Source: Candidatus Zambryskiibacteriota bacterium
Lineage (GTDB): Bacteria > Patescibacteriota > Minisyncoccia > Phycocordibacterales > WO2-35-19
Length of the DNA: 64,000 nucleotides
Direction of reading: 5' to 3'
Assembly (NCBI GenBank): GCA_048499675.1
Contig: JASNZL010000001.1
Location: forward strand, 58,747-122,746
Made by a program: the position numbers and the translations under genes. The notes beneath the pieces were generated by a model that was not told where the DNA came from, did no database searches, and worked only from the letters and a program-made list of their open reading frames with translations. Below, piece after piece: positions 16,021 to 57,137 of this stretch (positions within the stretch are counted from its first letter, which is position 1; each line of letters begins with the position of its first letter).

Positions 16021-16323
16021 GACTATCTACTGAGAATCTTTCTTATCCACACCGAAATAAATTTTTTTAATGACTTATACTTCTTTTCTTACACTAAGCG
16101 AGCAGTCGCATCACTTCGGTATTAAGAAAAAACACCAGCCAAAGCTGGGTTTTATTTTGCACACCGGGAGGGATTAGGTCACAGATAAATTTTTTGTCGT
16201 CACAAAAAATTTTCCGCGACCCCGACTCGCGGCCGAGCGTGCTCGCTCGGCATCCGCTCCGTCTTTCTCACCCTCCGGAGGTAGCAAATGAAAAATAGTG
16301 GGAAACCCCACTATTTTTCATTT

Positions 16324-16407
16324 GTGCGCCGGGAGGGATTCGAACCCCCGTAGGCCGAAGCCGTCAGATTTACAGTCTGATGTAATTGACCACTCTACCA
16401 CCGACGC
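16324..16407 (-). tRNA. tRNA-Tyr (anticodon GTA) with a long variable arm.
   Basis: Reverse complement reads GCGTCGGTGGTAGAGTGG...CAGACTGTAAATCTG...GGGGGTTCGAATCCCTCCCGGCGCA. Cloverleaf with a 7-bp acceptor stem, anticodon loop CTGTAAA and a type-II variable arm. Confidence 0.8.
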
Positions 16408-16416
16408 ATACTCATA

Positions 16417-16656
16417 TCATTCTAATAATTTTTTGAAAGCATTTCCACCTTTATAGCTTTTCTTTTCTTTCTCCCTCTTGAAAGCTGTCGAACTATTGGG
16501 ATATAACTCCTTGTAAACTATTTCATATGGTATAAATTTGCAAGTTGATTTATTATATCCTGAATTGTGTTCTTTAATCCTTCTTTCCAAATTATTCGTA
16601 CACCCTATGTAGAATTTGTTTTTAACCCTGCTTTTAATAACGTAAACATTCCACAT
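16417..16656 (-). CDS. GIY-YIG nuclease family protein (small stand-alone GIY-YIG domain, ~79 aa from the internal Met).
   Basis: YVIKSRVKNKFYIGCTNNLERRIKEHNSG matches the GIY-YIG motif. The longer ORF (16417..16767) would read through a tRNA-derived repeat, so the start MWNVYV at 16656 is preferred. Confidence 0.6.
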   Translation of the reverse strand: MWNVYVIKSRVKNKFYIGCTNNLERRIKEHNSGYNKSTCKFIPYEIVYKELYPNSSTAFKREKEKKSYKGGNAFKKLLE

Positions 16657-16788
16657 TGTTTTTATTTTTGGTGTAATTGACTTTACCCCGCCGTGGCGGG
16701 GAGTACCCCGCCGTGGCGGGGCAAGCTCTACCACCGACGCATATCGTTTGCTAAAACATTCTAGCAAACAATATTATATTTTTCCAAC

Positions 16789-19530
16789 CTATTTTACATC
16801 CACACTATCCAGAATTGACGCTTCGATTATTGCACCTCTTTTACCTTTTTTAAATTCAAACACAAGGTCATTATCTTTGACATCTACTGAAACTATACCA
16901 CCTCTCATAATTTGTTTTGATATAATCAAAGATGCAATAGGATTTAAAATTTTATTTTGTATAACTCTCTTTAGAGGTCTTGCTCCGTACTGCGGATTAT
17001 ATCCTTCTTTGGTCAAGAACTCATATGCGCTTTCTGTCAGTTCAAGTGAAATTTCTTTTAGAGACAACCTCTCTCTTACAAAATCAATTTGTATTTTTAC
17101 AATATCTCTTATTGCATCCATAGGCAAAACGTCAAATATAATTATGTCGTCCAACCTGTTTAGAAATTCAGGTCTGAAATGATCCTTGAGTGCTTCCATA
17201 ACCTTATCTTTTACTTCTTCGTAGCTTCCCTCTTCGTTATTTCTTTCCCCAAATCCAAGCTTTTCCATCTTGTCTATATACTGAGCGCCAATATTTGAAG
17301 TCATGACAATAATACTGTTTTTGAAATTAACCGTTCTTCCTTTTGAATCAGTAAGTCTGCCATTATCCAAAACTTGAAGCAATACATTAAACACTTCCGG
17401 ATGAGCTTTTTCTATTTCGTCAAAAAGAATTATTGAGTATGGTCTATGTCTAACCATATCAGTGAGTCCTCCCCCCTCATCAAATCCAACATAACCAGGA
17501 GGTGCACCAATTAGTTTTGAAACAGCATGTTTTTCCATAAATTCTGACATATCAACTCTAATCAATGCGTTTTCATCATTGAACATAAATTCAGCTAGTG
17601 CTTTAGTAAGTTCAGTTTTACCAACGCCAGTAGGTCCCAAGAAAATGAATGAGCCAATTGGTTTATTTGGATCAGAAATCCCAGCTCGAGATCTTTTTAT
17701 TGTATCGGCAATTTTTTTAACAGCATTGTCCTGACCAACAACTCTTTTTGTTAGTTCTTCTTCCATTCTGTTTAGTTTTTCTGCCTCCTCCTCAAGCATT
17801 CGAAAGACAGGAATACCGGTCCATTTTGATACTATGTTTGCTATATCATTTTCAGTTATTTCTTCTTTAAGAATCCTTCTTGAGCTCTGAAGTTTTTTAA
17901 GTCTTTTTATATTTTGATCAAGTACTTTTTCAAGTGTTGGAATTTTACCATACCTTACCTCTGCAGCCTTACCTAAATCAACTTGAGCTTCGGCAGATTC
18001 TGCTTCTAGTCGAGCTTCCTCAAGTTCTTTTTTTATTCTCTTTATTTCCCCAACTGTTTCTTTTTCATTTTTCCATTTCAAGTCTATTTCTGCAGTCTTT
18101 TCTTTAAGGTCTGCAATTTCCTTCTCTATTTCTTGAAGTCTTTTCTTGGCTTTTGTGTTTTTACCTTCCGCTTCTTTTTTTAGCGCTTCTCTTTCTATTT
18201 CAAGTTTAACAATTTTAGAATTTGTCTCTTGCAAAATAGGTGGCATATTTTCCAAAGAAATCTTTAGATGACTCGCCGCCTCATCTATCAAATCAACCGC
18301 TTTGTCTGGCAAAAATCTATCTGCTATATATCTAGAAGAAAGATTAACCGCAGATTTTATAGCATCGTCAGTGATATGCACCCCATGGTAAAGTTCATAC
18401 TTTTCTTTTAAACCTCGAAGAATTGTAACCGCATCATCAATAGAAGGCTCTGACACAAAAACTGGTTGAAATCTTCTTGTTAAAGCTGGGTCCTTTTCAA
18501 TATGCTTCTGGTACTCTTTTATTGTGGTTGCGCCAATAGCTCTCAAATCCCCTCTTGCAAGAGGAGGTTTCAACATATTAGAAGCATCGAGTGAACCTTC
18601 TGCGCTACCGGCTCCAACTATTGTGTGAATCTCGTCAATAAAGAGAATTATTTTACCATCTGATTTTTCTATCTCCTTAATTATGTTTTTTAACCTTTCT
18701 TCAAACTCTCCTCTATATTTTGTTCCTGCAACTAAAAGTCCCAAGTCAAGAGAAACTATTTCTTTATCCTTGAGTGACTCTGGAATATTTCCTGAAACCA
18801 TTCTCATTGCCAAACCTTCTGCAATAGCAGTCTTTCCAACACCCGCCTCTCCTATTAATATAGGATTATTTTTTGTTCGTCTTGCCAAGATTTGTACTAT
18901 ACGAGAAATCTCCTCATCTCTACCAATTACAGGGTCAAGCTTGTTATCTCTCGCCAGTTTTGTAAGTGAACGCGTGAACTTAATTAAATTTTTATTTTTT
19001 GTAACTGGTTTTCCTTCAGTCATTCTTCCTTGTCTTATTTCCTGAATCAAAAACATTACTTTTTCTTTTTCTATTTTGAATTTATTCAAAATATCCCTAG
19101 CTTGACTTGGAAGCTCTAAACAAGCAATGAATAGGTGCTCCGTGGAGACAAATTCATCACTCATATTACTTGCAACTTTTGATGAATGTTCAATTATGTG
19201 AGCAAGCTCAGGTGTTAGATATATTTGGTATGAAGGTGTCGCTGTATTGCCCATTACCCCACCTTCCATGGCATCAAGTAGAGAATCGGTTAGCAAAATT
19301 GTATCAACTTCCATCCTGTCTAAAATAGAAACCACCATACTTTCTTCTTGTAGAATAAGAGCAGTCAAAAGATGTACTGGAGCAACATGGTTTTGACCAC
19401 GTTCAATAACCAGCTCATGAGCCTTTCTAATTACCTCCTTTGCTTTTGTTGTAAATTGATTAAATGGTGTCATACTCAAATAGAATTTGACTATGTTATT
19501 ACATAACAGATTCCGTAGTAATATAGCCAA
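16789..19530 (-). CDS. clpB: ATP-dependent chaperone ClpB.
   Basis: Two AAA+ modules ([13 protein letters not shown] and [15 protein letters not shown]) separated by a long coiled-coil middle domain. N-terminal Clp_N repeats. Confidence 0.85.
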
Positions 19531-19588
19531 AATTCACTACGGGATTTTAGATTATTATTATAGCAGAATTTTGTCCAAAATCAAAATT

Positions 19589-20553: not shown

Positions 20554-20588
20554 AAAATATACTTTATAGTACTAACAATTATAAAATA

Positions 20589-24919: not shown

Positions 24920-25004
24920 GCCCGAGTGGCGGAATTGGTATACGCAGTCGACTTAAAATCGGCGGCCGTAAGGCTTGTGGGTTCAAGTCCCACCTCGGGC
25001 ACCA
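24920..25004 (+). tRNA. tRNA-Leu (anticodon TAA) with a long variable arm and encoded CCA.
   Basis: GCCCGAGTGGCGGAATTGGTA...GTCGACTTAAAATCGGC...GGGTTCAAGTCCCACCTCGGGCACCA. Its 3' end is the att site of the downstream element. Confidence 0.85.
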
Positions 25005-25160
25005 GAATGGAACTTAACGGTTTTTCGGAGACCGAATTGTGGGCGGCGCAAAGCGCCGCCCACTGATTTCCCCCCATTTTTCCAAACGAATTTGGAGCGT
25101 CGCCTTCGGCGACGCGCACTTTTCTTTCGGCGAGGAGGAGGTGCGAATCAGAAGCAATTT
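24997..25160. repeat. IR-a, left copy. A ~165-bp perfect inverted repeat that includes the att core (tRNA-Leu 3' end) plus ~130 bp of downstream sequence.
   Basis: The reverse complement of 26695..26860 is identical to 24997..25160 by direct comparison (accagaatggaacttaacggtttttcggagaccgaattgtgggcggcgcaaagcgccgcc...gaggaggaggtgcga). Confidence 0.8.
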
Positions 25161-25237
25161 GATTCATAGTATTTGCTTTACAAAAAGAATTTTTGCTATA
25201 ATGAATTTGCGTTCAACTTTTCGGGTCGTCTTTTTTA

Positions 25238-26890
25238 ATGGCCGTCCTAGCCAATTCGAGGCGACTTGAGTTGAACGCACTAGGGCGGCCATTTAAGTTG
25301 AGCGCAAAATATATGGAAAAACAAAAATTCTTTTTGTATGCTCGCAAGTCAACTGATGTCGAGGACAAGCAGGTTCTTTCGATTGAAGCACAACTCACCG
25401 AATTGCGGGCGTATGCACGCGAGAATAATTTGGAAATTTCCGCCGAAATAGTGGAAAAGCAATCTGCAAAATATCCGGGTCGCCCTTTGTTCAACAAGAT
25501 GATGGATGACATTGAAAAGAACGGCGGAAATATTCTCGCGTGGAATCCCGATCGTCTCGCCCGCAATTCGGTGGACGGAGGAAGGATTATTTATCTCCTC
25601 GACACAGGGAAACTTGTGAGCCTAAAATTTCCAACATTTTGGTGCGACAACACATCGCAGGGGAAATTTATGTTGAATATGGCATTTGGCCAAAGCAAAT
25701 ACTATGTGGATTCTCTTTCCGAAAATACGAAACGCGGACTTCGCCAAAAAGTAAGAATGGGTATATTTCCAAGTCAAGCGCCTTTGGGATATCTCAACGA
25801 TTCGAGAACAAAGACGATTGTTGTAGAAAAGAAAAAATCTCGCATTGTGCGCTTGGCTTTTGAGAGATATGTCAAAGGTAATCAACGGCTAGAAGATATT
25901 GCCGAATTTTTGGCGAAGTCCGGCGTTACAACCAGAACCGGAAGGAGAATCTCCAAAACTAGAGCGTCTTTTATCCTTTCCAATCCGTTCTATATCGGAC
26001 TATTCAAATATGGCGGTGAAATCCACGAAGGAAAGCACGAACCAATCATTTCAAAGAAACTTTTTGACGAAGCGCAAGAAATGCTACGCAAGCGCGGACA
26101 ACCTGAACGCAAGCCACAGAATGAACCACAACCTTTCTGTGGTCTCATTTCCTGCGCTTCTTGCGGAATGATGATAACTGCCGAGAACAAAACGAAGCGA
26201 CAGAAGAATGGCAATGTTCATCACTATATTTACTATCGTTGTACCAAAAAGAGAAAAGATTTTAAGTGTAACGAGCTGTCGCTTCGTTCTGAAGAAGTAG
26301 ACAAGCAGTTATCATCTCTCATTCAAAAAGTTTCTTTGCCCAAAGACTGGGCGGAAGAATTATTGAAAATGGCGGAAAATGACCACAAAAAATCCGCCCA
26401 GTCTTTGACTGCTTGCGTGAAAGAAAAAGAGGAAATGATTTCTTCTCTCTCGCAAAAACTGGAGCGACTTCTTAATGGCTATCTCGACCAAATAATTGAT
26501 CAAGTGGACTATACTTCACAGAAATCAAAACTGTTATCTGAAAAGAAGTCGCTCGAAGAAGAAATCTTTACTTTTTCACACAAGCAGAATGATTGGCTCG
26601 CACCCTTTCAATCTTGGCTAAAATACGCTCAATCCTTGGACAAAATTGCTTCTGATTCAGACCTTTTTGCTAAAAAGGTCTGGGCCAAAGAAATCTTTGG
26701 CTCGCACCTCCTCCTCGCCGAAAGAAAAGTGCGCGTCGCCGAAGGCGACGCTCCAAATTCGTTTGGAAAAATGGGGGGAAATCAGTGGGCGGCGCTTTGC
26801 GCCGCCCACAATTCGGTCTCCGAAAAACCGTTAAGTTCCATTCTGGTGTCTTTATTTTACCAAGCTCGCACCTTTTTTCAAAATCGGTGA
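25238..26890 (+). CDS. Large serine recombinase (resolvase/invertase catalytic domain, recombinase domain, zinc ribbon and coiled-coil).
   Basis: N-terminus YARKSTDVEDKQVLSIEAQLTELRAYAREN contains the catalytic Ser. Zinc-ribbon CGLISCASCGM...YYRCTKKRKDFKC. ~480-550 aa. The last ~60 codons run into inverted repeat IR-a', so the true stop may lie earlier. Confidence 0.8.
   Translation: MAVLANSRRLELNALGRPFKLSAKYMEKQKFFLYARKSTDVEDKQVLSIEAQLTELRAYARENNLEISAEIVEKQSAKYPGRPLFNKMMDDIEKNGGNILAWNPDRLARNSVDGGRIIYLLDTGKLVSLKFPTFWCDNTSQGKFMLNMAFGQSKYYVDSLSENTKRGLRQKVRMGIFPSQAPLGYLNDSRTKTIVVEKKKSRIVRLAFERYVKGNQRLEDIAEFLAKSGVTTRTGRRISKTRASFILSNPFYIGLFKYGGEIHEGKHEPIISKKLFDEAQEMLRKRGQPERKPQNEPQPFCGLISCASCGMMITAENKTKRQKNGNVHHYIYYRCTKKRKDFKCNELSLRSEEVDKQLSSLIQKVSLPKDWAEELLKMAENDHKKSAQSLTACVKEKEEMISSLSQKLERLLNGYLDQIIDQVDYTSQKSKLLSEKKSLEEEIFTFSHKQNDWLAPFQSWLKYAQSLDKIASDSDLFAKKVWAKEIFGSHLLLAERKVRVAEGDAPNSFGKMGGNQWAALCAAHNSVSEKPLSSILVSLFYQARTFFQNR
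26695..26860. repeat. IR-a', the inverted copy of the att-core region on the distal side of the recombinase gene.
   Basis: See IR-a. It contains the inverted att core aaaaaccgttaagttccattctggtgtc. Confidence 0.8.
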
Positions 26891-27262
26891 TGTTTCGCAC
26901 GCTCCACGCGCCTTGTGATTTGCAACCGCCAACTACGCTCGGCAACACCAAAGAAAAATGTCTCTTACAACTTTGGTTTTCGCGCAGGATTTTTCTGAAA
27001 AAGGAAAGGATATTTTTCTTTGGTGTTCTGCCCTCAATGCTTCGGGCAGGTGGCGGGGCTACTATGCGGACTCGGTTTTGCCAAACTATTTTTCTGGGGA
27101 TTTGGATTTGGCAAAACCTCGGCTGAATGTTGCCCGCCCGCAGAAAGGGGTCTGGGGAATGAATGCGGGCGGGCTTGTATAAAACCCAAAATTGTGGTAT
27201 GAGTATGGCAGAAGAAATCCTGGTGGATTTCTGAAAATTGCACATTTACAACCCAAAAAGGA
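26862..27262. repeat. IR-b, left copy. A ~400-bp inverted repeat whose inner end carries an SD sequence and an ATG-GAA start, ending at the first cargo gene.
   Basis: The reverse complement is identical to 32945..33356. The inner end reads ...acccaaaaaggaggtgaattATGGAAtgg, and the mirrored copy ...ccattATGGAAtcc on the other side. Confidence 0.8.
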
Positions 27263-27270
27263 GGTGAATT

Positions 27271-28008
27271 ATGGAATGGTTTCATCGCCTATACTTCGGT
27301 ACGTGGCAACTTAGCGGGCAGTTTAAGAACCTGTCTCCTGCCTACATCGAATCGCTACTACTTTTCGCCATCAGCTCCGGTATTCGTCGTTTTGATACGG
27401 CGGCCGTCTATGGTGGAGGCAAGGTAGAGGAGATGCTCGGCGCATTCTTGCCGGAAGATGCAGTCATTGTGACCAAAATTCCGGCAATCAAAAAACCCAA
27501 GCTTGAAGTCGCTGCACCAATTAATGGATTCTATACACCAGATCATCTTGATCGAGGTGTTGAGGGTTCGTTACGTCGACTCAAGAGAACACAACTCGAT
27601 ACTGTCTTGTTGCACAACTGGCTGCCATCTTGGTCGTCAGATGCAAGCAACATTCTTCATCATCTACAAGGTATGAAGAGCAAAGGCATTGTCCGTAGAG
27701 TAGGTATTTCTCTGCCGAATGATTTCTCTGCGCACATCGATGATGAGGTTCTACCTCTTATTGATGTGGTTGAAGCCCCTTACAACCCAGATCAGAAATG
27801 GGTGCTTGAACAGCTCCCAAACTTCATTGATTTAGGAAGGGAAGTGCTTCTGAGGAGTTTATTCGATCAAGGGAAGCTGCTCGCTGCATACTCCGCGGAA
27901 TCGCTTGTCGCTGACGCAGCGAAACTCGGAACATCCGTGGTTATTGGCATGACGACGGAAAATCAGGTAACACAAAACATCAACCACCTGAAAGGAGAAA
28001 CCCAGTGA
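27271..28008 (+). CDS. Aldo/keto reductase family oxidoreductase.
   Basis: 245 aa. RRFDTAAVYGGGKVEEMLGAFL is a typical AKR N-terminal motif. The gene is GC-rich. Confidence 0.55.
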   Translation: MEWFHRLYFGTWQLSGQFKNLSPAYIESLLLFAISSGIRRFDTAAVYGGGKVEEMLGAFLPEDAVIVTKIPAIKKPKLEVAAPINGFYTPDHLDRGVEGSLRRLKRTQLDTVLLHNWLPSWSSDASNILHHLQGMKSKGIVRRVGISLPNDFSAHIDDEVLPLIDVVEAPYNPDQKWVLEQLPNFIDLGREVLLRSLFDQGKLLAAYSAESLVADAAKLGTSVVIGMTTENQVTQNINHLKGETQ

Positions 28009-28916
28009 ACAAAAACCGGAATGCCGAAATTCTTGCTCACCTGAACGATTCTGTTGTTGTTCAGAACATCATCGTCCGTCATCGCGTCAAACAGATCACC
28101 AGACGATTCTTCTGTTCTCATGGCTTCATCGAAGTGGATACTCCCATCTTGGGGGATCCTCTAGATGAATATACAACGAGCCATTTTGCCGTTCGAGGCA
28201 GAGGAGGTTCGTACGCTCTTCCGCAGTCGCCACAGCTGTACAAACAACTGGCTGTAATCTCCTCGTTGGAGAAATACTTTCAGTTTCCGCATTGTTTCCG
28301 CGACGAAGAGTACGATCCGAGAAGAACTGATCAGTCGCCGGAGTTCATGCAAATTGACTTCGAACTGCGCACAACAAGTGTCGCTGAAGTCAGAACCATT
28401 GCAGAAAACCTAATGAAGAAGATCTGTGACGAATTGGGCAGTCAATGCTCAGTGCCGTTCCCGACAATCGATGCTGTCGAGTGTGTCCAGAAATACGGAA
28501 CTGACAAGCCGGATATGAGGCAATCTCCAGAGGAGTATGCTTTCCTATGGGTTGTTGACTTCCCGCTTGTGGAAACCACGGAAGGCGGAAAGTCCAAGCC
28601 GACACATCACCCCTTCGCTTTGCCTATTTTTGAAGGTGAGAACCTTCCTGAAGATCTAAGCGCGGTTCGTACTGCTTCTTACGATCTCGTGTTAAACGGC
28701 ATGGAGATTGGGGGTGGTGATTTGCGAATTCACTCAGAGAATTTGCAAAGAGAAGTCATCAGACAATTGGGCTTCAATGAGGATCAATTCGCACTTCTTC
28801 TTGAGGCGCTTAGTACGGAAACGACACCACCCCACGGAGGAATGGCAATTGGACTCGATCGGCTCGTGATGCAACTCACGCGGACGAAAAAAATCAACGA
28901 CGTCAACTTCTTTTGA
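28005..28916 (+). CDS. Truncated bacterial-type aspartyl-tRNA synthetase catalytic core (class IIb). It lacks the N-terminal anticodon-binding OB domain and the GAD insertion domain, making it an AspRS-like paralog.
   Basis: YALPQSPQLYKQLAVISSLEKYFQFPHCFRDEEYDPRRTDQSPEFMQIDFE matches AspRS motif 2 (ALPQSPQLFKQ...CFRDEDLRADRQPEFTQID). Motif 3 is PPHGGMAIGLDRLVMQLT. Only 303 aa. Confidence 0.65.
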   Translation: MNKNRNAEILAHLNDSVVVQNIIVRHRVKQITRRFFCSHGFIEVDTPILGDPLDEYTTSHFAVRGRGGSYALPQSPQLYKQLAVISSLEKYFQFPHCFRDEEYDPRRTDQSPEFMQIDFELRTTSVAEVRTIAENLMKKICDELGSQCSVPFPTIDAVECVQKYGTDKPDMRQSPEEYAFLWVVDFPLVETTEGGKSKPTHHPFALPIFEGENLPEDLSAVRTASYDLVLNGMEIGGGDLRIHSENLQREVIRQLGFNEDQFALLLEALSTETTPPHGGMAIGLDRLVMQLTRTKKINDVNFF

Positions 28917-28929
28917 AAAGGAGCTAAAA

Positions 28930-30237
28930 ATGCAACGAGCATTGATCAAAGAACTCGGATCCAAGATCGGCGAGACCGTTCGGATCTGCGGATGGGTGGG
29001 ATCGCTCCGCGATCAAAAGCGGATGCAGTTCCTTATTGTCCGTGACCACACCGGCAGTGCACAGGTAGTGCATGAAAAGTCGGCAAACGCCGAACTAACG
29101 GAAGCAATTGCCGGCCTCACGTCCGAAAGCGCAGTGGAAATCATCGGCAAGGTTATTGCCAATCCGGTGGTCAAGCTGGGCGGACTGGAGGTGGTGGCCA
29201 AGTCGGTGAACGTCGTCAGCAAAGCGGAAGCGCTTCTGCCGTTCGGCGAGAATCCGACTAGCGAAACCAGGCTGGATTGGAGATTCCTGGATCTGCGTAC
29301 TCCGCAGAACCTGCTCGTCTTCAAAATCCAGACAGCGGCCGAGCATGCCATGCGTTCGTTCTGGACAGCGGAGGGGTTCATCGAGATGCACTCCCCGAAG
29401 TTCATGGGCAGTGCAAGCGAGTCCGGCGCGGAGCTCTTCGAGGTGAAGTACTTCGATCGCAAAGCGTATCTCGCTCAGTCGCCTCAGTTCTACAAACAGA
29501 TGGCGATGGCGGCGGGGTTCGACCGTGTGTTCGAGATTGGACCGGTTTTCCGAGCCAATCCGTCTTTCACTTCGCGACACGACACGGAGTTCACCAGCGT
29601 GGACGTCGAAATCTCGTGGGTTGACTCTCACGAGGACGTCATGCAGCTTGAGGAGCGTTGGCTTCGTCACGTGCTTCAGGTGGTGAAAGCCGAGTACGGC
29701 GAGGAAATCAAGGCGACGTTCGGCACGGAGATCGTGGTCCCCGAGCTTCCGTTCCCGCGCGTGACTATGGAAGAGGCATACAACATCCTCGACCAGATGG
29801 GTCACCGCATCGAGCGAGGCGAGAAGGGTGACCTCGATCCGGAGGGTGAGCGGCTCTTGTGTCGGCACTTCCACGATAAGACCGGCCACGAGTTCGTCTT
29901 CGTCACCGAGTATCCTGCTGTGGTCCGGGCGTTCTACCACATGCGTCCCGAAGGCAAACCCAATCTCACCAAGAGCTTCGACCTTCTCTGGAAGGGGCTT
30001 GAAGTGACAACAGGAGCGCAACGGGAGCATCGCTACGAGATCCTGGTGGAGCAAGCCAAGGAGAAGGGGCTCTCGCTTGAACCCATCCAGTACTATCTGG
30101 ACTTCTTCCGCTACGGCTGTCCGCCGCACGGCGGCTACGGCTTCGGCCTCACCCGCATGCTCATGGTGATGCTGGGCGCGAAAAGCGTGCGCGAGGTGAC
30201 GTACCTCTACCGAGGCGTCAACCGACTCACTCCGTAA
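28930..30237 (+). CDS. Aspartyl- or asparaginyl-tRNA synthetase, archaeal/eukaryal-type class IIb (435 aa, N-terminal OB anticodon-binding domain plus catalytic core).
   Basis: N-terminal VRICGWVGSLRDQKRMQFLIVRDHTGSAQVV is an OB fold. SPQFYKQMAMAAGFDRVFEIGPVFRANPSFTSRHDTEFTSVDVE is motif 2. GCPPHGGYGFGLTRMLM is motif 3. Confidence 0.7.
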   Translation: MQRALIKELGSKIGETVRICGWVGSLRDQKRMQFLIVRDHTGSAQVVHEKSANAELTEAIAGLTSESAVEIIGKVIANPVVKLGGLEVVAKSVNVVSKAEALLPFGENPTSETRLDWRFLDLRTPQNLLVFKIQTAAEHAMRSFWTAEGFIEMHSPKFMGSASESGAELFEVKYFDRKAYLAQSPQFYKQMAMAAGFDRVFEIGPVFRANPSFTSRHDTEFTSVDVEISWVDSHEDVMQLEERWLRHVLQVVKAEYGEEIKATFGTEIVVPELPFPRVTMEEAYNILDQMGHRIERGEKGDLDPEGERLLCRHFHDKTGHEFVFVTEYPAVVRAFYHMRPEGKPNLTKSFDLLWKGLEVTTGAQREHRYEILVEQAKEKGLSLEPIQYYLDFFRYGCPPHGGYGFGLTRMLMVMLGAKSVREVTYLYRGVNRLTP

Positions 30238-30259
30238 CAAAAGGGGTAGGGCAGATGCT

Positions 30260-39163: not shown

Positions 39164-39580
39164 CTACTGATTTTCGCCAGTAGAATTATACCAAACTTGA
39201 CTCCAGTCCTGACCATCTCCTCCTATTGAAGGAATTGGTACGCTCGTGTTACCTCCAGAACCCAGCAATTCAGTCTGCAAAAAAGCAACCAAACCCCAAA
39301 CCGAAGCCATAACGAAGAGAGCGACAACTCCCCAAACCATTATTTTCTTTCCTTCATCCTTTTCACTACCTGCTGACCTTATGTACTTTGCAACTCCCCA
39401 GAAGAAGAAGAGAAGGGCCAGTGTAAAGACAATAGGAATAATAATACGTGTAACAATTCGTCCTGCGTTTGTAAGAAGTATATTTGTTCCAGATAGAGTG
39501 CCTCCAGTCTGCGCAGTCTGCGCAAAAGAAATAATTGGAGTGAGTAAACCACTGATTATAATTGTTTTTATTTTTTTCAT
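39164..39580 (-). CDS. VirB2/TrbC-like T4SS-pilin-family protein, paralog 3.
   Basis: Signal ...ISFAQ. IIPIVFTLALLFFFWGVAKYIRSAGSEKDEGKKIMVWGVVALFVMASVWGLV. Divergent Gly/Ser-rich C-terminal tail. Confidence 0.55.
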   Translation of the reverse strand: MKKIKTIIISGLLTPIISFAQTAQTGGTLSGTNILLTNAGRIVTRIIIPIVFTLALLFFFWGVAKYIRSAGSEKDEGKKIMVWGVVALFVMASVWGLVAFLQTELLGSGGNTSVPIPSIGGDGQDWSQVWYNSTGENQ

Positions 39581-39661
39581 ATATTTTTTGTATAATAATT
39601 TAATTAGACTCTTATACTGTATTAATTACTTTTTTAATATTATATTTATATAATTTTCAAA

Positions 39662-40051
39662 TTAAGGATTAATTGTTGCCTCAACATACGGACCTACAAC
39701 ATTAGAATCTACGCTTGGCGTCAATTCTGTATCTACTTGCTGAATATCAAGTATGCCGAGCTCTGTTCTAATAAAGTATACTATACCCCATATTGAAGAA
39801 GCAATAAACAAAGCAAAAATACCCAAAATCATCACTCTTTTGCCTTCATCTTTTTCGCTTCCTGCTGACCTTATGTATTTTGCCACTCCCCAGAAGAAAT
39901 ACAGCAAGCACAAAGCAAAAGCTATTGGTATTAAAACTTGAACTATGACATTGTAACCAGCGTTTATGATATCTTGCGCTTTTGTATTTTGTGCATCTGC
40001 TAATATTGGAACCAAAAAAAGAAAAAAAGTTTTGATAAATATATTTTTCAT
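39662..40051 (-). CDS. VirB2/TrbC-like T4SS-pilin-family protein, paralog 4.
   Basis: Signal ...LADAQ. LIPIAFALCLLYFFWGVAKYIRSAGSEKDEGKRVMILGIFALFIASSIWGIV. Confidence 0.55.
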   Translation of the reverse strand: MKNIFIKTFFLFLVPILADAQNTKAQDIINAGYNVIVQVLIPIAFALCLLYFFWGVAKYIRSAGSEKDEGKRVMILGIFALFIASSIWGIVYFIRTELGILDIQQVDTELTPSVDSNVVGPYVEATINP

Positions 40052-40056
40052 ATAAA

Positions 40057-40341
40057 CTAAAATTTAATCTGAGGTATAACCACATCTGCACCAAAACCTA
40101 ACTCACTTTTTATAAAAGAAATTATACCCCAAATTGTAACTAGAATAAACATACCAACAACTCCCCAAATAAGTAAATTTTTACTGTCTTTTGTGTCTTT
40201 TTCACTTCCGGATGATTTAATATATCGAGCCACACCAATCAAAAAGACAAAAAAAGCCAAAGCGCCCATAAAGGGTATAAGTGTTGATACAATATTTATA
40301 AACATTGTTATTAACTCACTGATTGTCTTAGGACTAGTCAT
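40057..40341 (-). CDS. VirB2/TrbC-like T4SS-pilin-family protein, paralog 5 (shorter, no obvious cleavable signal).
   Basis: LIPFMGALAFFVFLIGVARYIKSSGSEKDTKDSKNLLIWGVVGMFILVTIWGII. Confidence 0.5.
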   Translation of the reverse strand: MTSPKTISELITMFINIVSTLIPFMGALAFFVFLIGVARYIKSSGSEKDTKDSKNLLIWGVVGMFILVTIWGIISFIKSELGFGADVVIPQIKF

Positions 40342-40365
40342 AAGGTTATGTTTTATATTTAAATA

Positions 40366-40785
40366 CTAACTCTTTAATTCATTTATTGTGCCTTGTATTA
40401 CTTCAGATATTACCCACGCACCAAGCAAAATTGCAGAGCCTATTAAAGCCCATTTTAGCGATTCTTTGGCTTTTGTAATCTGAGTTTCGTTGCCTCGAGC
40501 TGTAACAAACAAAAATCCTGAGAAAATAATCATAACTACTGCAACTACAGCACCTATTGGTATTAGTATTTCATCAACTATAGCTTTGACTAAATCAGGA
40601 ATAGTCTTCGTTTTAAAAGGATTGTCTATTTTTATGTTGTAAGACACTGGGTTTGTAGCAGGTCCATCTCCTCCAGTTGCAGTTTGATTTCCTCCTCCAG
40701 AAGCTTGTTGTGCCATCAATAAAGAAGGATAAAAAGCAATGAATAATATAACTAATAGACCAAAAAATTTATTAACTTTATTCAT
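40366..40785 (-). CDS. VirB2/TrbC-like T4SS-pilin-family protein, paralog 6 (more divergent).
   Basis: Signal ...LLMAQQ. Gly-rich linker. Two hydrophobic helices with a charged loop (TARGNETQITKAKESLKWALIGSAILL). Confidence 0.45.
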   Translation of the reverse strand: MNKVNKFFGLLVILFIAFYPSLLMAQQASGGGNQTATGGDGPATNPVSYNIKIDNPFKTKTIPDLVKAIVDEILIPIGAVVAVVMIIFSGFLFVTARGNETQITKAKESLKWALIGSAILLGAWVISEVIQGTINELKS

Positions 40786-40794
40786 GTAATTTTA

Positions 40795-41205
40795 TTAAAA
40801 ATTTATAGGCAAATAAACCGAGTTATTATTACCAATCAGGACATTTATTAATGTACTAACTATAAGCCACGCCGACAATATAAAAACGAAACCAATAAAA
40901 ACTTTAGCCAGCATTGATTTTGCCTCTGATTTTTTGTCCGCAATTCCACTTGTCATATAGACAAATCCTGCCCAAGCGATAACTCCTGTTGCTACCGGAA
41001 CAGAGACAACAAGCAACCATCCCAAAATATTCTTTATCAGTTGAAGCAAATCATTATAGCCACACTCTTTATTTGGCCCTCCACAATCAGGAACTAGCCT
41101 GTTTGGAGCTTCGTCTTGAGCAAATCCAAGCAAAGGAAACAGTGAGACCACAATTAGAACCAGAGCCATCAAGAAATATTTATTTTTTTGTAAAAACACC
41201 AACAT
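40795..41205 (-). CDS. VirB2/TrbC-like T4SS-pilin-family protein, paralog 7 (more divergent).
   Basis: Signal ...LGFAQ. Two hydrophobic helices with the loop TSGIADKKSEAKSMLAKVFIGFVF. Confidence 0.45.
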   Translation of the reverse strand: MLVFLQKNKYFLMALVLIVVSLFPLLGFAQDEAPNRLVPDCGGPNKECGYNDLLQLIKNILGWLLVVSVPVATGVIAWAGFVYMTSGIADKKSEAKSMLAKVFIGFVFILSAWLIVSTLINVLIGNNNSVYLPINF

Positions 41206-46766: not shown

Positions 46767-46815
46767 ACTTTAATTTTTTTATAATGTGAATTGCCCCTCA
46801 CTTTGTTCTAGACTC

Positions 46816-47026
46816 TCGCAAAATATATTCGCTTTGCTCATTATTTTGCGGAGGGTAGAGGATTTGGTCACGCATAATTTTTTTCAAAAATTTGCTCGAC
46901 CCCGACTCCCCTTCGCAAGCTCAGGGTCCGTCTTTCAAATCCCAAAAAGTACTATCCGAAGTACTTTTTGCCCCTCTCGCAAAATATATTCGCTTTGCTC
47001 ATTATTTTGCGGAGGGTAGAGGATTT
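46816..47026. repeat. ~50-bp direct repeat pair flanking a ~110-bp unit downstream of tRNA-Ser. One copy includes the tRNA-Ser 3' end.
   Basis: ctcgcaaaatatattcgctttgctcattattttgcggagggtagaggattt occurs at 46816..46866 and 46976..47026. The intervening sequence contains the conserved GAAAGACGG...GAGTCGGGGTCGAG motif on the minus strand. Confidence 0.75.
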
Positions 47027-47225: not shown

Positions 47226-47297
47226 TGGCCCCATCGTCTAACGGTTAGGACGGAAGCTTTTCAAGCTTTAAATCGGAGTTCGATTCTCCGTGGGGTC
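47226..47297 (+). tRNA. tRNA-Glu (anticodon TTC).
   Basis: GGCCCCATCGTCTAACGGTTAGGACGGAAGCTTTTCAAGCTTTAAATCGGAGTTCGATTCTCCGTGGGGTCA. Anticodon loop TTTTCAA. Confidence 0.8.
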
Positions 47298-47740
47298 ACA
47301 GGTACTTAAGATCCGATGCGAATGCATCGGGTTTTTAGTACCTGTAGGGTTCCATACGGGGAATCGAAAGACGGGGGCGCGAAGCCGATTGCAAAGCAAT
47401 CGTTGCCGAGTCGGGGTCGAGAAAAATTTGCACTAGCAAATTTATTCGTGACCGATTCTCCGTGGGGTCACAGGTACTTAAGATCCGATGCGAATGCATC
47501 GGGTTTTTAGTACCTGTGGGGTTCCATACGGGGAATCGAAAGACGGAGGCGCGAAGCCGATTGCAAAGCAATCGTTGCCGAGTCGGGTGAGAATTGGGTA
47601 GGGACCCAATTTGCAAGACTCATTGAGATATTTTATGAGTTGAAACGAAATACAATATCCAATGAGTGGACAGATTCTGTAAGAATCGCACAAAATTTCT
47701 GTAAGGAATTTATTCGTGACCGATTCTCCGTGGGGTCACA
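47298..47740. repeat. Two tandem units (173 bp and 270 bp) downstream of tRNA-Glu. Each is terminator hairpin, conserved GC-rich motif, then an 18-nt copy of the tRNA-Glu 3' end.
   Basis: cgattctccgtggggtca recurs at 47280-47297, ~47453-47470 and ~47723-47740. Each unit starts caggtacttaagatccgatgcgaatgcatcgggttttt (terminator) and contains gaaagacgg(g/a)ggcgcgaagccgattgcaaagcaatcgttgccgagtcggg. Confidence 0.8.
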
Positions 47741-47768
47741 GATTTTTCAATCAACCAAAAGGGCAGGT

Positions 47769-54147: not shown

Positions 54148-54151
54148 GTTT

Positions 54152-54195
54152 TTCTCTTATTAATTATTTATTAATTATTTATTAATTATTTATTA
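54152..54195. repeat. 11-bp tandem repeat (attaattattt)x4 immediately upstream of the giant-protein start codon.
   Basis: ttaattatttattaattatttattaattatttattaattta, read directly. Confidence 0.7.
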
Positions 54196-54441
54196 ATTTA
54201 TATTTAAGTATACTAGCGTCTTTCCTAATTGTCAATAGCATCATTAAAAGTTGCTAATGAAAATCTCCTTATTTGTAGCCATTTTATATTTTTTGTCCTT
54301 TTGAAGATTACAATGTCCTTTACAAAACTATTAAGTCTTTAAAATAAATCATTTTTTATATAAGACATTTTGTATTCTACTTTTTGTCCTAGAACTAACA
54401 CTGCCCTATATTTTAAAAATGAACAAAAATGAAGTATTATT

Positions 54442-55173
54442 ATGTTATATATTATGGATTCGTATTCAACCCTAGTTTACTCTCTTGCTGGCGGGATATT
54501 ACCCGCTCTTTTGTGGCTCTGGTTTTGGTTAAGAGAAGACAGAAAATCCCCAGAACCCAAATCTAGAATTGCTATAGCTTTTATGAGTGGCGCTCTTGCT
54601 GTATGGCCCGCGATTCTAATAGAAAGATACCTGTGTAATATTTTGGATTCAAATATTTGTAGCGAGGGACTTATTCCTAGTTTTATACTCATATTACTGT
54701 GGGCAACTACTGAAGAAATATTCAAATACATTGCAGGATTCTTTAGCTCTTTTTATAAAAACAAGCATTACAACGAACCGATTGATGCCACTATATATAT
54801 GATTACGGTGGCTCTTGGTTTTTCTGCACTAGAGAATGCTTTGTTTATTTCTAACTTAATAGATCAAGGGTTGATACCTCATAGTATAATTACTGGAAAT
54901 TCCAGATTCCTAGGAGCGACACTTCTCCATGTTGCGTCTTCTGCCTCAATTGGAGTAATGATGGGTCTTTCTTATTACAAGAGCGTTATTCAAAAAAAGA
55001 TATTCTTATTAACAGGAATTGCAATATCTATAGTCTTGCATACGATATTTAATTTACTTATAATAAAGATTGAGACAAACATATTTTTTGTATTTGCGGG
55101 GGTATGGCTTCTTGTGGTTACCCTAATAGCCTTAATCCAAAAAATTAAATCAATTAAATCAAAATCAACTTAA
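54442..55173 (+). CDS. PrsW-family intramembrane metalloprotease-like protein.
   Basis: Multi-TM. ATTEEIFKYIAGF (EExxK) plus FSALENALFI and HVASSASIGVMMG match PrsW-type conserved motifs. Confidence 0.5.
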   Translation: MLYIMDSYSTLVYSLAGGILPALLWLWFWLREDRKSPEPKSRIAIAFMSGALAVWPAILIERYLCNILDSNICSEGLIPSFILILLWATTEEIFKYIAGFFSSFYKNKHYNEPIDATIYMITVALGFSALENALFISNLIDQGLIPHSIITGNSRFLGATLLHVASSASIGVMMGLSYYKSVIQKKIFLLTGIAISIVLHTIFNLLIIKIETNIFFVFAGVWLLVVTLIALIQKIKSIKSKST

Positions 55174-55196
55174 TAATTTATGATTAATTTATAAAA

Positions 55197-55646
55197 ATGG
55201 GAAGAGATAAAAGATCATTTTTTGAAAAACTAACCGGATCGGTTTCTTTGCCCGACGAGATAGAAGAAACAACAGAAGTAGTGCCAAATAATTCTTGGAT
55301 TGACCAAACCCCAGAAGAAGGAGAGCTTTCTGTAGATGTGTACCAAAATCAAAACGATATTGTTATTAAGACTATGGTTGCTGGAGTTAAACCAGAAGAT
55401 TTGGATGTTTCTATTTCGCGCGACATGGTTACCATAAAAGGCAAGAGAGAAAGCGAGAGAACTGTAGCTGACGACGACTACTTCCACAAAGAATTATACT
55501 GGGGCACCTTTTCTAGAACTATAGTTTTGCCGGAAGAAATAGACGTTGACTCCGCTGAAGCCGTAGAGAAACACGGACTTCTTATAATCAGACTTCCAAA
55601 ACTCGACAAAAACCGCTCCACCCGACTCAAAGTTAGAGGAAATTAA
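55197..55646 (+). CDS. Hsp20/alpha-crystallin family small heat-shock protein.
   Basis: ELSVDVYQNQNDIVIKTMVAGVKPEDLDVSISRDMVTIKGKRE...FSRTIVLPEEIDVDSAEAVEKHGLLIIRLPK is a typical ACD. Confidence 0.7.
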   Translation: MGRDKRSFFEKLTGSVSLPDEIEETTEVVPNNSWIDQTPEEGELSVDVYQNQNDIVIKTMVAGVKPEDLDVSISRDMVTIKGKRESERTVADDDYFHKELYWGTFSRTIVLPEEIDVDSAEAVEKHGLLIIRLPKLDKNRSTRLKVRGN

Positions 55647-55694
55647 AATATATCTAGATTCAAATAGTCTTCTCAAAAATCTTATTTTGGGAGA

Positions 55695-56810
55695 TTATTT
55701 GTGATGTGCGCCAACAGCCTGACTAATATTTTTAAACCCATCTTTTTTTAACAAATCAACGATTCCTTTATTAATTTCCCCAATAAGGTTGGGGCCTTCA
55801 AATACCATCCCCGTTATCAACTCAACTAGAATTGCGCCTCTTTTTATTTTCTCATAAGCGTCCTTTGCATTAAATATTCCACCCACCCCGATTATTTTTA
55901 TTTTGTTACCATAATTCTGGTAAGTTTTAGATATTAATTCATTGGAAATATCGTGTACTGGTTTACCACTTAAATTACCTTTAACATCTGAACTTAGCTC
56001 GTCTTCTGGCTTAACACTTTTCCTATCCTTATTTAAATTCGATATAACTAGAGCATTTACACCAAAATCAATAGCAACGTCTACAAGACTTCTAAATTCT
56101 TGCCATTCCAAATTTAATGGCATTTTCAAAAAAACTGGCTTTTTGATTGATAGCGAATACAGTTTTGTTAAAAGCAATTTCAAATCAGATGGGTTTGTGA
56201 AAGGTTCTCCACCAAATGTATTAGGACAAGATATGTTTATTTCATATATGTCACCGATATCACTTTTTACAAACTCATTTAAACAATTAAAATAGTCCTC
56301 TATTCCGTCTTCTAATTTGCTTGTTTCTAATGAGTTTGTCCTACCAATTGAAATAACTTGTGGTATCGTCTTTCTTGTATTTTTTAAACGCTCAATTATT
56401 TTTTGAGCACCTTCATTCTTAAGACCATAATTCACTAATAAAGAGCCTGAATTTATTAGTCTTTTTAATCTTGGTTTAGGATTGCCCCCATAAGGTTTGT
56501 ACGTAACAGTCCCAACTTCTGCAAAACCAAAACCAACTGATTCCATAATTCCATGCACCTTGCCATCTTTATCAAAACCAGCCGATAGTCCAACTGGATT
56601 TATAAAATCAATCCCCCATAAATTTTGATTCAGAATCTCGTCTTTGTAAGAAAATACTTTTTTTGTTATAAATTTTGTTATTTTACATTTTCCCAAAAAC
56701 CAACCCAGATTCATAAATCTGTCGTGAACAAATTCGGGATCAAACTTAAACAAAATAGGTTTGATTATACTTTTGTAGGAAAAACCACTTAACTTTGAAA
56801 TTAATTGCAT
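55695..56810 (-). CDS. pyrD: Dihydroorotate dehydrogenase (class 2, quinone-dependent).
   Basis: FDPEFVHDRFMNLG, NPVGLSAGFDKDG, NISCPNTFGGEPF, IGVGGIFNAKDAYEKIKRGA. Confidence 0.75.
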   Translation of the reverse strand: MQLISKLSGFSYKSIIKPILFKFDPEFVHDRFMNLGWFLGKCKITKFITKKVFSYKDEILNQNLWGIDFINPVGLSAGFDKDGKVHGIMESVGFGFAEVGTVTYKPYGGNPKPRLKRLINSGSLLVNYGLKNEGAQKIIERLKNTRKTIPQVISIGRTNSLETSKLEDGIEDYFNCLNEFVKSDIGDIYEINISCPNTFGGEPFTNPSDLKLLLTKLYSLSIKKPVFLKMPLNLEWQEFRSLVDVAIDFGVNALVISNLNKDRKSVKPEDELSSDVKGNLSGKPVHDISNELISKTYQNYGNKIKIIGVGGIFNAKDAYEKIKRGAILVELITGMVFEGPNLIGEINKGIVDLLKKDGFKNISQAVGAHHK

Positions 56811-56847
56811 TTGTAACTAAATATAACATTCTCCTCATACTATATGC

Positions 56848-57063
56848 AAAACCCCGCATACGCGGGGTTAGTTGTGCCAAAGCGCAGGGCTCGGTGTCAG
56901 CTCACATCAATATTTTACTTCGCTATGCTTGTAAAATATTGTGTGGCTCCTACCCGGGCTCGCCTGTCGCAATGCGACATGGCTCCGCCTTTCGAGCCCG
57001 CACAAGAGCAAAGCAGTTTGCTCTTTCCCTCGTCACAAAACCCCGCATACGCGGGGTTAGTTG
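56848..57063. repeat. tRNA-Phe-associated unit. Terminator hairpin plus the tRNA 3'-end copy is duplicated (56848..56880 and 57036..57068), flanking ~150 bp that contains the conserved GC-rich motif.
   Basis: aaaaccccgcatacgcggggttagttgtgcc occurs twice. The intervening sequence (minus sense) reads ...cgaaaggcggagccatgtcgcattgcgacaggcgagcccgggtagg, homologous to the right arm of the tRNA-Leu element. Confidence 0.7.
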
Positions 57064-57137
57064 TGCCGAGGGGCGGGCTCGAACCGCCGACCTATCGCTC
57101 TTCAGGCGAGCGCTCTAGCCAACTGAGCTACCTCGGC
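57064..57137 (-). tRNA. tRNA-Phe (anticodon GAA).
   Basis: Reverse complement reads GCCGAGGTAGCTCAGTTGGCTAGAGCGCTCGCCTGAAGAGCGATAGGTCGGCGGTTCGAGCCCGCCCCTCGGCA. Anticodon loop CTGAAGA. Confidence 0.7.

Follow-up and report, generated by a model that had tools for sequence, protein, structure and literature searches.

The tycheposons of Prochlorococcus are multi-gene islands that integrate at tRNA genes and carry their own integrase (10.1101/2020.12.28.424599). Here we describe a family of short units that follow tRNA genes in a 64,000-nucleotide (nt) stretch of the genome of a Candidatus Zambryskiibacteriota bacterium (contig JASNZL010000001.1, positions 58,747 to 122,746; the whole stretch is called the window) and that probably work most like tRNA-integrating islands of the tycheposon kind. 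In both, the tRNA is kept intact, a partial tRNA copy is found at the far end, and tandem arrays occur in which newer members push older ones outward; a large serine recombinase (LSR) is also known from some tycheposons. However, no conserved structured RNA with target-antisense arms has been described for tycheposons, and the present units are ~130 to 220 nt long (typically ~150 nt) and contain no gene. The data are best accounted for by a superfamily in which one chassis carries at least three cores. Our favored reading, to which we give about an even chance, is that the units are small protein-less insertion elements homing to tRNA and transfer-messenger RNA (tmRNA) genes, whose folded strand would recognize the tRNA 3' half.

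Other described systems resemble the units in part. The bridge RNAs of IS110/IS1111 elements have two internal loops, for target and donor, with a DEDD recombinase encoded alongside, and their insertion produces no long duplication (PMC13604230). Bridge and seek RNAs share with the units an element-encoded structured RNA near the element end, variable segments of which pair with the insertion target. In contrast, the units form a three-way junction with a single arm set directed against the tRNA 3' half, that is, one target-pairing helix; they have no Rfam or sequence similarity to these RNAs, and no IS110-type gene was found among the scanned window open reading frames (ORFs) or the unit neighbors. 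A Pfam comparison of 39 of the 46 larger window ORFs, which are the scanned ORFs referred to here and below, revealed no TnpB, IscB, IS110 transposase, reverse transcriptase, or tyrosine integrase. The omega-RNAs of IS200/IS605 elements also differ from the units, which have no tnpB or iscB in the scanned ORFs or the neighbors and a flank that is less conserved than the arm.

Integron attC sites and the attP site of CTX phage are simple hairpins used by tyrosine recombinases (IntI and XerCD) and do not target tRNA genes. In these sites, as in the units, structure is kept while sequence varies, folding is strand specific, and mismatches are conserved; the folded strand could also present a duplex copy of the target, as helix P1 of the units (see below) would. 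No tyrosine recombinase was found by the units, either in the scanned window ORFs or among the neighbors. Miniature inverted-repeat transposable elements are likewise short, protein-less, multi-copy, and variable among relatives, and both kinds of element break assemblies, the units doing so in L126 and L127 (L numbers denote loci of related genomes). However, the units have no fixed terminal inverted repeats; their "repeat" is a target-specific antisense arm, and their interior is a covarying structured RNA. Group I introns in Patescibacteria tRNA genes are structured RNAs with guide sequences that pair with the flanking exon (PMC13011429). Mobile introns of groups I and II share with the units a structured RNA at tRNA genes of the candidate phyla radiation (CPR) and guide-like pairing with the flank, whereas the introns are inserted in the anticodon loop, split the gene, and are recognized by Rfam intron models. 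The units are smaller and follow an intact tRNA (the upstream tRNAs are complete, at 51 to 67 bits), and they match no Rfam intron family and no Rfam model of the known small self-cleaving ribozymes. The units have the defining features of none of the compared systems and are rated as lying outside the known kinds; no description of the family was found in the literature searched.

Structure and distribution of the units

The window is AT-rich (~30 to 40% GC, with the exception of an island of 45 to 53% GC at 26 to 33 kb) and contains eight tRNA genes, together with protein genes of ordinary housekeeping functions (Mur ligases, ClpB, IF-2, RbfA, GyrA, TsaD, and GroEL/ES). In the tRNA sense, the elements of a unit follow the tRNA in the order P0 hairpin, 5' arm, GAAA, P2, GG, P3, and tRNA-tail copy. 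P0 is a terminator-like hairpin or a GC hairpin with a CUGC-type loop. P2 is made up of a GRC/GYC base, a GGA/GA internal loop, and a hairpin that varies, and P3 is a long hairpin with the base GGUCG/YGUGACC, GTGACC being the 3' strand of this base and not a separate box. The core consensus, GAAAGRCGGAG-P2-GAGYCGGGGUCG-P3-GUGACC, forms a three-way junction. The arm, which precedes GAAAG on its 5' side, complements the tail copy; paired, the two form helix P1 and close the fold, and there is no linker between P3 and the tail copy or P1. The original prediction, made from the letters of the window, had given the order tRNA, hairpin, motif, and partial tRNA 3' end correctly and had missed the arm.

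A covariance model, R1, built from 63 copies of many genomes (A2 and R1 models), was used to score the window and the loci of relatives. The components of the window units and their R1 matches are as follows, the left copy being the 3' part of the tRNA gene itself.

16324..16407, minus: tRNA-Tyr(GTA), the target gene; from nt 57 onward, GAATCCCTCCCGGCGCAC is the left copy
16291..16318, minus: Tyr P0, a terminator-like hairpin between tRNA and arm, read from the sequence
16268..16281, minus: Tyr 5' arm, CCTCCGGAGGGTGA, complementary to tRNA-Tyr from nt 57
16177..16267, minus: Tyr type-1 core, GAAAGACGGAG-P2-GAGTCGGGGTCG-P3-GTGACC (R1 at 16159-16283, minus, 95.2 bits, E 5e-31; fold z -6.3)
16158..16176, minus: Tyr right copy of the tRNA 3' part, TAATCCCTCCCGGTGTGCA, degenerate; a terminator is next, at 16135-16148
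24985..25004, plus: 3' part of tRNA-Leu(TAA), nt 57-76, the left copy at the left junction of the serine-recombinase island
33381..33422, plus: Leu unit, with acceptor-complement-like TGCACAGAG, P0 at 33390-33412 (CUGC loop), and arm GTGTGGACTT at 33413-33422
33423..33497, plus: Leu type-1 core, GAAAAGCGGAG ... GAGCTGGGGTCG ... GTGACC (R1 at 33407-33515, plus, 81.1 bits; fold z -5.2)
33498..33538, plus: Leu right copy of nt 57-76 (33498-33517), followed by 21 nt that copy the repeat E tip (33518-33538)
34451..34582, plus: Lys unit, with P0 at 34451-34476 (loop ACUGCUU), arm AGCTTGTCC at 34477-34485, a degenerate core without GAAAGRC at 34486-34576, and the partner GACAAG at 34577-34582 (R1 at 34470-34593, plus, 45 bits; fold z -6.0)
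46974..47026, minus: Ser left copy at tRNA-Ser(CGA), 53 nt that comprise the tRNA from nt 57 onward and 35 nt of trailer
46866..46970, minus: Ser unit, with P0 at 46943-46970, arm GGGATTT at 46937-46943, and type-1 core at 46866-46936 (R1 at 46848-46952, minus, 85.4 bits)
46813..46865, minus: Ser right copy, 53/53 identical to the left copy
47282..47301, plus: Glu left copy at tRNA-Glu(TTC), GATTCTCCGTGGGGTCACAG
47302..47453, plus: Glu1, with a compound P0 hairpin at 47302-47345, arm CCATACGGGGAATC at 47352-47365, and type-1 core at 47366-47453 (R1 at 47350-47471, plus, 81.5 bits; fold z -4.7)
47454..47473, plus: second tRNA-Glu tail copy, both right copy of Glu1 and left copy of Glu2
47474..47721, plus: Glu2, in tandem, with arm at 47524-47537, type-1 5' half at 47538-~47587, and a type-2-like module in the 3' part (TTGGGTAGGGACCCAA, GCAAGAC, and two CUGUAAG-loop hairpins), ending in GTGACC at 47716-47721 (R1 at 47522-47632, plus, 32.4 bits, and a second match of 17.6 bits)
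47722..47741, plus: third tRNA-Glu tail copy, followed by native downstream sequence
57036..57081, minus: Phe left copy at tRNA-Phe(GAA), from nt 56 to the tRNA end plus terminator (46 nt)
56894..57035, minus: Phe unit, with acceptor complement TGACGAGGG at 57027-57035, P0 at 57006-57023, arm GTGCGGGCTC at 56994-57003, and type-1 core with a diverged 3' part at 56894-56993 (R1 at 56874-57009, minus, 40.1 bits; fold z -6.4)
56848..56893, minus: Phe right copy, acceptor part degenerate and terminator intact

All seven copies reported in the original prediction were detected by R1 (E values, 5e-31 to 4e-9), and in a MAFFT alignment they align across the entire GAAAG...GTGAC span. The claim that a structured motif recurs at tRNA loci is thus borne out, with a family larger than first noted: there are at least nine copies in the 64-kb window, and units (variants counted) follow seven of the eight window tRNAs. 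At tRNA-Lys, where the copy of the tRNA end had been called not obvious, the short tRNA-derived partner GACAAG is present; it pairs with GCTTGTCC and equals the last acceptor nucleotide, the discriminator, and the trailer. A simple search for GAGYCGGGGTCG with at most two mismatches gave 10 matches in the window, compared with 1.8 expected, and seven of the 10 were inside the reported units. Two near matches on opposite strands at 13466-13528, within a 2,860-amino-acid ORF (6837-15419), had no R1 match and probably arose by chance.

A covariance-model scan, which had been suggested as a check for related CPR genomes, was run on the loci from the pattern scan described next and yielded 134 copies in 98 Patescibacteria or Elusimicrobia loci (0.7 Mb of DNA sampled). 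A motif pattern scan of one genome per species gave more than 100 true matches, nearly all in Patescibacteria and several in Elusimicrobia, with a handful of high-GC false positives. The relatives retrieved by motif or by protein were almost all metagenome-assembled genomes of Patescibacteria (CPR). The same pattern matched only five times in IMG/VR, and all five were high-GC false positives without P3, GTGACC, or tRNA context; blastn searches against INPHARED phages and PLSDB plasmids did not match the motif. Above threshold, Rfam recognized only tRNAs in the window and, additionally, tmRNA and LOOT in the loci. In the four regions compared, no Rfam family overlapped the units, even at E values of ≤10, except for chance-level matches (snoR145, 17.7 bits versus a gathering threshold of 57), which removes the objection that the motif might belong to an Rfam family.

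In the 134-copy alignment, 92.5% of the pair cells hold standard pairs, compared with 67.7% after column shuffling and 29 to 43% when the partners were slid, and double (both-side) changes occur in 26 of the 27 pairs. The covariation score was 0.622 (shuffles, 0.181; slid partners, ≤0.128), and none of 500 shuffles reached the observed values. The hairpin covariation seen by eye in the window copies is therefore upheld across the family, and similarity confined to generic G-runs is refuted by positional conservation and true covariation. The short units had also been described as possibly decayed, which is not supported, since stand-alone units keep the same proportion of pair cells paired and the same number of compensated pairs. 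When six units were folded as single sequences, five gave this fold (z, -4.7 to -6.4). Its tandem G.A pairs recall a K-turn or C/D box, for which bacteria lack the proteins. With compensatory changes beyond those of the controls, the units are structured RNAs or folded single strands.

Wobble pairs indicate which strand folds. Among 133 distinct copies, 126 have G.U at the fifth pair of P3, the pair two positions further on is divided between GC (64) and GU (33), and in the arm helix G.U outnumbers A.C by 70 to 28; because G.U pairs dominate, the fold is assigned to the tRNA-sense strand. RNA would be the simplest reading of this strand, most likely produced by read-through from the tRNA promoter. 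At tRNA-Tyr, a promoter-like site was found ahead of the gene and a terminator beyond the right copy, with no separate unit promoter evident; any transcription would accordingly be read-through from the tRNA. A kissing loop between P0 (CUGC) and P2 (GCAG) was seen in some copies only and was dropped.

The three-way junction, its near-invariant nucleotides, and the invariant G.U pair beside it would also suit a core that acts, as a small ribozyme (self-cleaving or self-ligating) or as an intron-like RNA, at GUGACC|nt57, with the arm as the substrate-binding strand. The lack of a P3-P1 linker, by which the 3' end of the core would stack on the bound tRNA strand, and the existence of several alternative cores on one chassis are consistent with such a role, and a catalytic core would represent a new ribozyme class. 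However, there was no match to any Rfam ribozyme or intron family and no hammerhead, twister, HDV, or group I/II signature; a hammerhead-like assignment was rejected on inspection, as no CUGANGA is present. Furthermore, a heritable insertion in DNA is left unexplained by a reaction at the RNA level alone, and the scanned window ORFs included no reverse transcriptase. We consider this explanation very unlikely.

The tRNA junction and the antisense arm

The association with tRNA genes is close: for 87 of the 134 copies, a same-strand tRNA or tmRNA gene lies no more than 150 nt upstream (mode, ~64 nt), and 13 more are second members of tandem pairs. The targets comprise 19 tRNA identities plus tmRNA; the units downstream of tmRNA are in L013, L014, L018, L044, and L088, with the junction at the tmRNA T-loop. 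In essentially all cases, the tail copy starts at T-loop nt 57, so that ...GGTTC|GAATCC in the tRNA corresponds to ...GTGACC|GAATCC in the unit. The length of the stretch identical in tRNA and copy peaks at 17 to 21 nt (nt 57 to the discriminator or CCA position), and a few stretches of 25 to 54 nt extend into the trailer. These tail duplications are DNA-level events. The duplicated 20-mer of tRNA-Glu ends in the genomic CAG and not in CCA, showing that the copy was taken from the gene rather than from mature tRNA.

The arm pairs not only with the helical part of the tail but also with nt 57-60, which are an unpaired loop in the tRNA (AATC opposite GATT and ACTT opposite AAGT). The arm is therefore an antisense copy of the tail, and its origin as a decayed tRNA 5' half is ruled out. 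It is either contiguous (16 nt complementary to nt 57-72) or bipartite, in the form (complement of 66-75)-AG-P0-CGU-(complement of 57-65). A perfect 7/7 acceptor complement was present upstream of P0 in 25% of the units, compared with 6% in a permutation control. The arm and its partner imitate the acceptor/T-arm "top half" of a tRNA, with P0 in place of the D and anticodon arms and the core in place of the T-loop. The window Phe and Leu units have closely similar P0 and P2 elements and different arms, which suggests recent retargeting.

Differences between the genuine tRNA and its downstream copy indicate which of the two the arm follows. At 127 such positions in 70 units, the arm pairs only with the tRNA in 61 cases and only with the copy in 19 cases, with both in 26, and with neither in 21. 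Beyond ~nt 65 the downstream copy decays, whereas the match of the arm to the real tRNA persists. In these units, it is complementarity to the tRNA itself that is maintained.

The same tally bears on the idea that the core and right copy constitute a guide of the omega-RNA or CRISPR RNA type, with a 5' scaffold, a 3' guide of ~20 nt (nt 57-76), and the T-loop TTC as adjacent motif, used by a TnpB/Cas12-type protein encoded elsewhere. A scaffold followed by a 17- to 21-nt target-identical segment would have this layout, and an invariant GTTC is found 5' of the target in every tRNA. However, it is the right copy that is less conserved and the antisense arm that is kept (61 versus 19), and this disfavors the idea. 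Moreover, such a guide would be blocked by the arm and would target the restored tRNA itself, and no TnpB/Cas12 gene was present among the scanned window ORFs or the unit neighbors. A guide of this type is extremely improbable.

Turnover at orthologous loci and a possible route of insertion

The gene for ClpB, which adjoins tRNA-Tyr in the window, was used to gather 80 related loci blind to the motif (ClpB identity, 65 to 85%). About 68 of the 80 relatives keep tRNA-Tyr adjoining clpB, which occurs in either orientation among L131-L210. An arm was scored as a 9-mer complementary to nt 57-65 at ≥8/9 positions followed by GAA. Among the 57 loci with enough downstream sequence, 37 had no arm and 12 had the arm plus GAA, compared with 10 of 1,379 in the control. 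The conserved downstream gene is shifted by 330 to 560 nt in some tRNA-Tyr loci, three of which carry units (L155, L192, and L198), and tandem arrays are found at the window tRNA-Glu and in L012, L120, and L192. The presence/absence polymorphism that had been proposed as a test of mobility is thus seen at the clpB-tRNA-Tyr loci. The units are mobile elements by orthologous presence and absence together with multiple copies, with both gain and loss, and turnover, displacement, and tandem arrays are the marks of an active multi-copy insertion element. Contigs of the near-identical strains L126 and L127 end at units and are uninformative for presence or absence.

The same tRNA-Tyr site is occupied by at least three core types; only five of the clpB loci have the canonical R1 core behind tRNA-Tyr. 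The type-2 core (24 copies) consists of GAAAAGGUU..., a long hairpin, ...AACCU-GUAC(U/C)G, a UGUAA-loop hairpin, and the tail, with compensatory changes in 10 of 12 pairs. The GUAC(U/C)G is invariant and is accompanied by the 5-bp UGUAA-loop hairpin (L184, L166, L186, L198, L141, L151, L130, and others; window, 47588-47721). The UGUAA loop fits the T-loop pattern U-G-N-R-A and resembles the tRNA-Tyr anticodon loop CUGUAAG, and the 3' strand is often GGTTC, which is T-arm-like. The interruption of Glu2 in the window is not random, its 3' half being a module of this second family. The third core family, GAACRGAUUGYCGG, has no GUGACC and is found on the same chassis (window, 34780-35103; L140). 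Two further regions of the window contain such variant units.

34780..35103 (approximate ends), plus: two tandem diverged type-3 units (~178-nt repeats) after tRNA-Leu(TAG), with arm GGAGAGGACTT, a GAACAG core, two hairpins, and a tRNA-Leu tail copy (R1, 16 and 17.9 bits)
57150..57330, minus: type-2-like unit (~190 nt) ending in GTGAC, within a partial 5' tRNA-Phe copy that reaches ~57435

The latter region (57150-57440, minus), upstream of the intact tRNA-Phe, consists of a degenerate 5' tRNA-Phe copy with a 64-nt GC-rich insert in the D-loop; the type-2-like unit is inserted near nt 44/45 of this copy and ends in GTGAC|ATAGGTCG. The arrangement resembles an older, differently targeted insertion.

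The exchange of cores also bears on the proposal that the units are host-domesticated, tRNA-linked noncoding RNAs, transcribed together with the tRNA and released by tRNA-processing enzymes owing to the top-half mimicry of arms and tail, with a role, for example, in regulation or quality control. This would fit the presence of units behind most of the window tRNAs, the strong purifying selection on the structure, the bipartite arm with P0, which mimics an acceptor helix plus one arm plus a T helix, and the absence of an own promoter combined with a terminator after the right copy. In contrast, the unit arm is missing from 37 of the 57 scorable orthologous tRNA-Tyr loci, and unrelated cores substitute for one another. 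Tandem copies and duplications reaching into the trailer (53 nt at Ser) are signatures of insertion, and many right copies have lost their acceptor part, so that a complete minihelix is often missing. We regard domestication as unlikely.

For homing insertion elements, the following route can be proposed. The arms would base-pair with the 3' half (nt 57-65 and often 66-75) of the matching tRNA gene or transcript, and the core would thereby be positioned at the 56/57 junction. Recombination would then take place between the tRNA gene and a one-copy intermediate (core, tRNA nt 57-73, and left end) within the 17- to 20-nt segment, giving an intact tRNA, then the element, and then the displaced tail. 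After insertion, the downstream tail would keep the arm paired as P1, so that the arm would not unfold the neighboring tRNA. The catalyst could be the RNA itself, a trans-acting recombinase (for example, the abundant CPR serine recombinase), or host enzymes. As far as can be read from their sequences, all of the observed products are equal to those expected from recombination of the one-copy intermediate inside the shared 17 to 20 nt. We infer from the same data RNA over single-stranded DNA, guidance by the arm, and the recombination route. A target-complementary arm on a conserved junction at one T-loop phosphodiester bond is also the layout expected of guide-directed insertion or cleavage.

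Several points weigh against this interpretation, beginning with the fact that all of its mechanistic steps are deduced from sequence. G.T wobbles form in folded single-stranded DNA as well, and the folded molecule may be a single DNA strand. In some copies, read-through would be restricted by the terminator-like P0 that separates tRNA and unit. The window Glu arm complements exactly the tRNA-Glu tail of L029 and not that of its own tRNA, and the L198 arm fits the right copy better than it fits the resident tRNA; with respect to the element-borne copy, these two examples conflict with the 61/19 arm tally. Unit-bearing tRNA-Tyr loci occur in both Saccharibacteria and Paceibacteria, and the distribution could be partly vertical. 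Finally, no partner enzyme was identified among the unit neighbors or the scanned window ORFs. When 305 neighboring ORFs were clustered, only housekeeping functions and tRNA-specific synteny were seen, and no recombinase, reverse transcriptase, or nuclease recurred. In L002, L028, and L073, tRNA and unit are separated by cargo of mixed kinds, which in L028 includes an IS3 insertion.

The turnover of tRNA loci by protein-less elements in ultra-small genomes is unexpected, as these genomes are regarded as streamlined and poor in mobile DNA. The family also affects the annotation and assembly of Patescibacteria genomes, since assemblies break at its members, which also raise the intergenic GC. 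Should the arm direct integration, by itself or together with a serine recombinase, this would be a new principle of programmable recombination.

The serine-recombinase island

The window contains an island (25005-33497) with an LSR gene (25238-26890), and this island ends in a canonical unit. As originally predicted, the motif forms the right arm of the 8.5-kb element (Leu unit). All five islands with a located far end (window, L012, L129, L130, and L212) end in a unit with a canonical or variant core, the arms are matched to the local tRNA, and, like that of the short units, the tail duplication begins with nt 57. The 10 kb covered in L128 contained neither a far-end unit nor a copy of the tail. 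Given a background occupancy of 21 to 55%, five of five is suggestive and not decisive. Either the unit is the integration module of the island or the island landed between the tRNA and a resident unit.

The LSR has thousands of homologues in Patescibacteria at 70 to 93% identity, many copies being located at contig ends. In seven other LSR homologue loci (L128-L130 and L211-L214), the LSR 3' end overlaps a tRNA gene on the opposite strand (Val, three times; Tyr, twice; Ser; Leu-gag; and Leu-caa). The window LSR is bracketed by exact 89-bp inverted repeats, E (25000-25088; 26760-26848, reverse complement), and L128 is alike (~89 bp). The outer tip of E (CACCAG...) supplies the CACCA end of tRNA-Leu, and E abuts the tRNA CCA end and not the unit; because of this, the unit could have pre-existed where the island landed. 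The 21-nt E-tip copy after the Leu right copy (33518-33538) has two mismatches, and as it follows the right copy directly, the island is bounded by a 41-nt direct repeat (tRNA tail plus E tip). Relative to the tRNA, the window LSR has the opposite orientation to that in L128-L130 and L211-L214, suggesting that the cassette is invertible or IS-like. L130 shares the IF2-RbfA-tRNA-Cys neighborhood with the window, and its tRNA-Leu(TAA) is unoccupied and ends without CCA.

From these islands, the motif could be taken as the right-arm (attP-proximal) module of LSR islands and the short units as cargo-less derivatives or relics, mobilized in trans or stranded. The tRNA-matched units at all of the located far ends, the shared start at nt 57, the extreme abundance of the LSR family, and its occurrence at Val, Tyr, Ser, and three Leu isoacceptors argue for this. 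However, a tblastn search of the loci with the LSR gave L012, L057 (a fragment), and a Streptomyces false positive; an LSR homologue is thus near the motif in two of ~100 true motif loci, and none recurs among the neighbors. The original view that the short units belong to the same family as the recombinase element is not sustained by these numbers. A recombinase within att bounds, as in an LSR integrative element, is present in the window island, L012, L129, L130, and L212 and is lacking in six of the seven window units and in the units of the other motif loci. The short units also show no structural decay and are ~3 to 5 times commoner than LSR or E-type sequences at tRNA-Tyr. The cassette's own 89-bp repeats abut the tRNA CCA end, whereas no E-like sequence follows the left copy in the short units, and precise excision of the island would take the unit along. 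An origin of the units as island relics is in our opinion somewhat unlikely. The alternative already offered in the original prediction, that the motif is a structured RNA or site co-opted by the island, may apply.

A further extension of the homing-element reading is that the units are programmable, base-pairing-guided integration modules, with a junction that recruits or supplies strand transfer; in its strongest form, the CPR LSR would use the unit RNA to choose tRNA genes. We put this forward tentatively and with doubt. It would explain how recombinases that are 75 to 93% identical come to be at Val, Tyr, Ser, and three Leu tRNAs, and an LSR guided by the unit RNA would be the first RNA-guided serine recombinase. 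A more mundane outcome is also possible, namely, an accessory RNA of recombinase islands with many stranded copies.

A second inverted repeat, S (26849-26889 and 33318-33358; 41 nt with one to three mismatches), flanks the 6.4-kb high-GC cargo of the window island and is also found beside E in L128. The cargo comprises an aldo-keto reductase, two class-II aminoacyl-tRNA synthetase-like genes (28005-28916 and 28930-30237), a peptidase S51, and a radical-SAM-like ORF. In L012, a LOOT RNA (RF03000, 64.5 bits) is located at 3852-3985, inside the recombinase-bearing island. Among L131-L210, tRNAs with an encoded CACCA mostly precede a foreign element, which is E-like in L134, L138, L146, and L201; other shared sequence follows the CACCA-ending tRNA in L142, L143, L163, and L196. 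Elsewhere in the window, an ORF at 59385-60104 (plus) has a weak, sub-threshold match to the rve integrase core and is possibly a decayed DDE transposase, and five tandem paralogous small ORFs at 38723-41205 (minus) match a type IV secretion pilin family (PF18895/TrbC).

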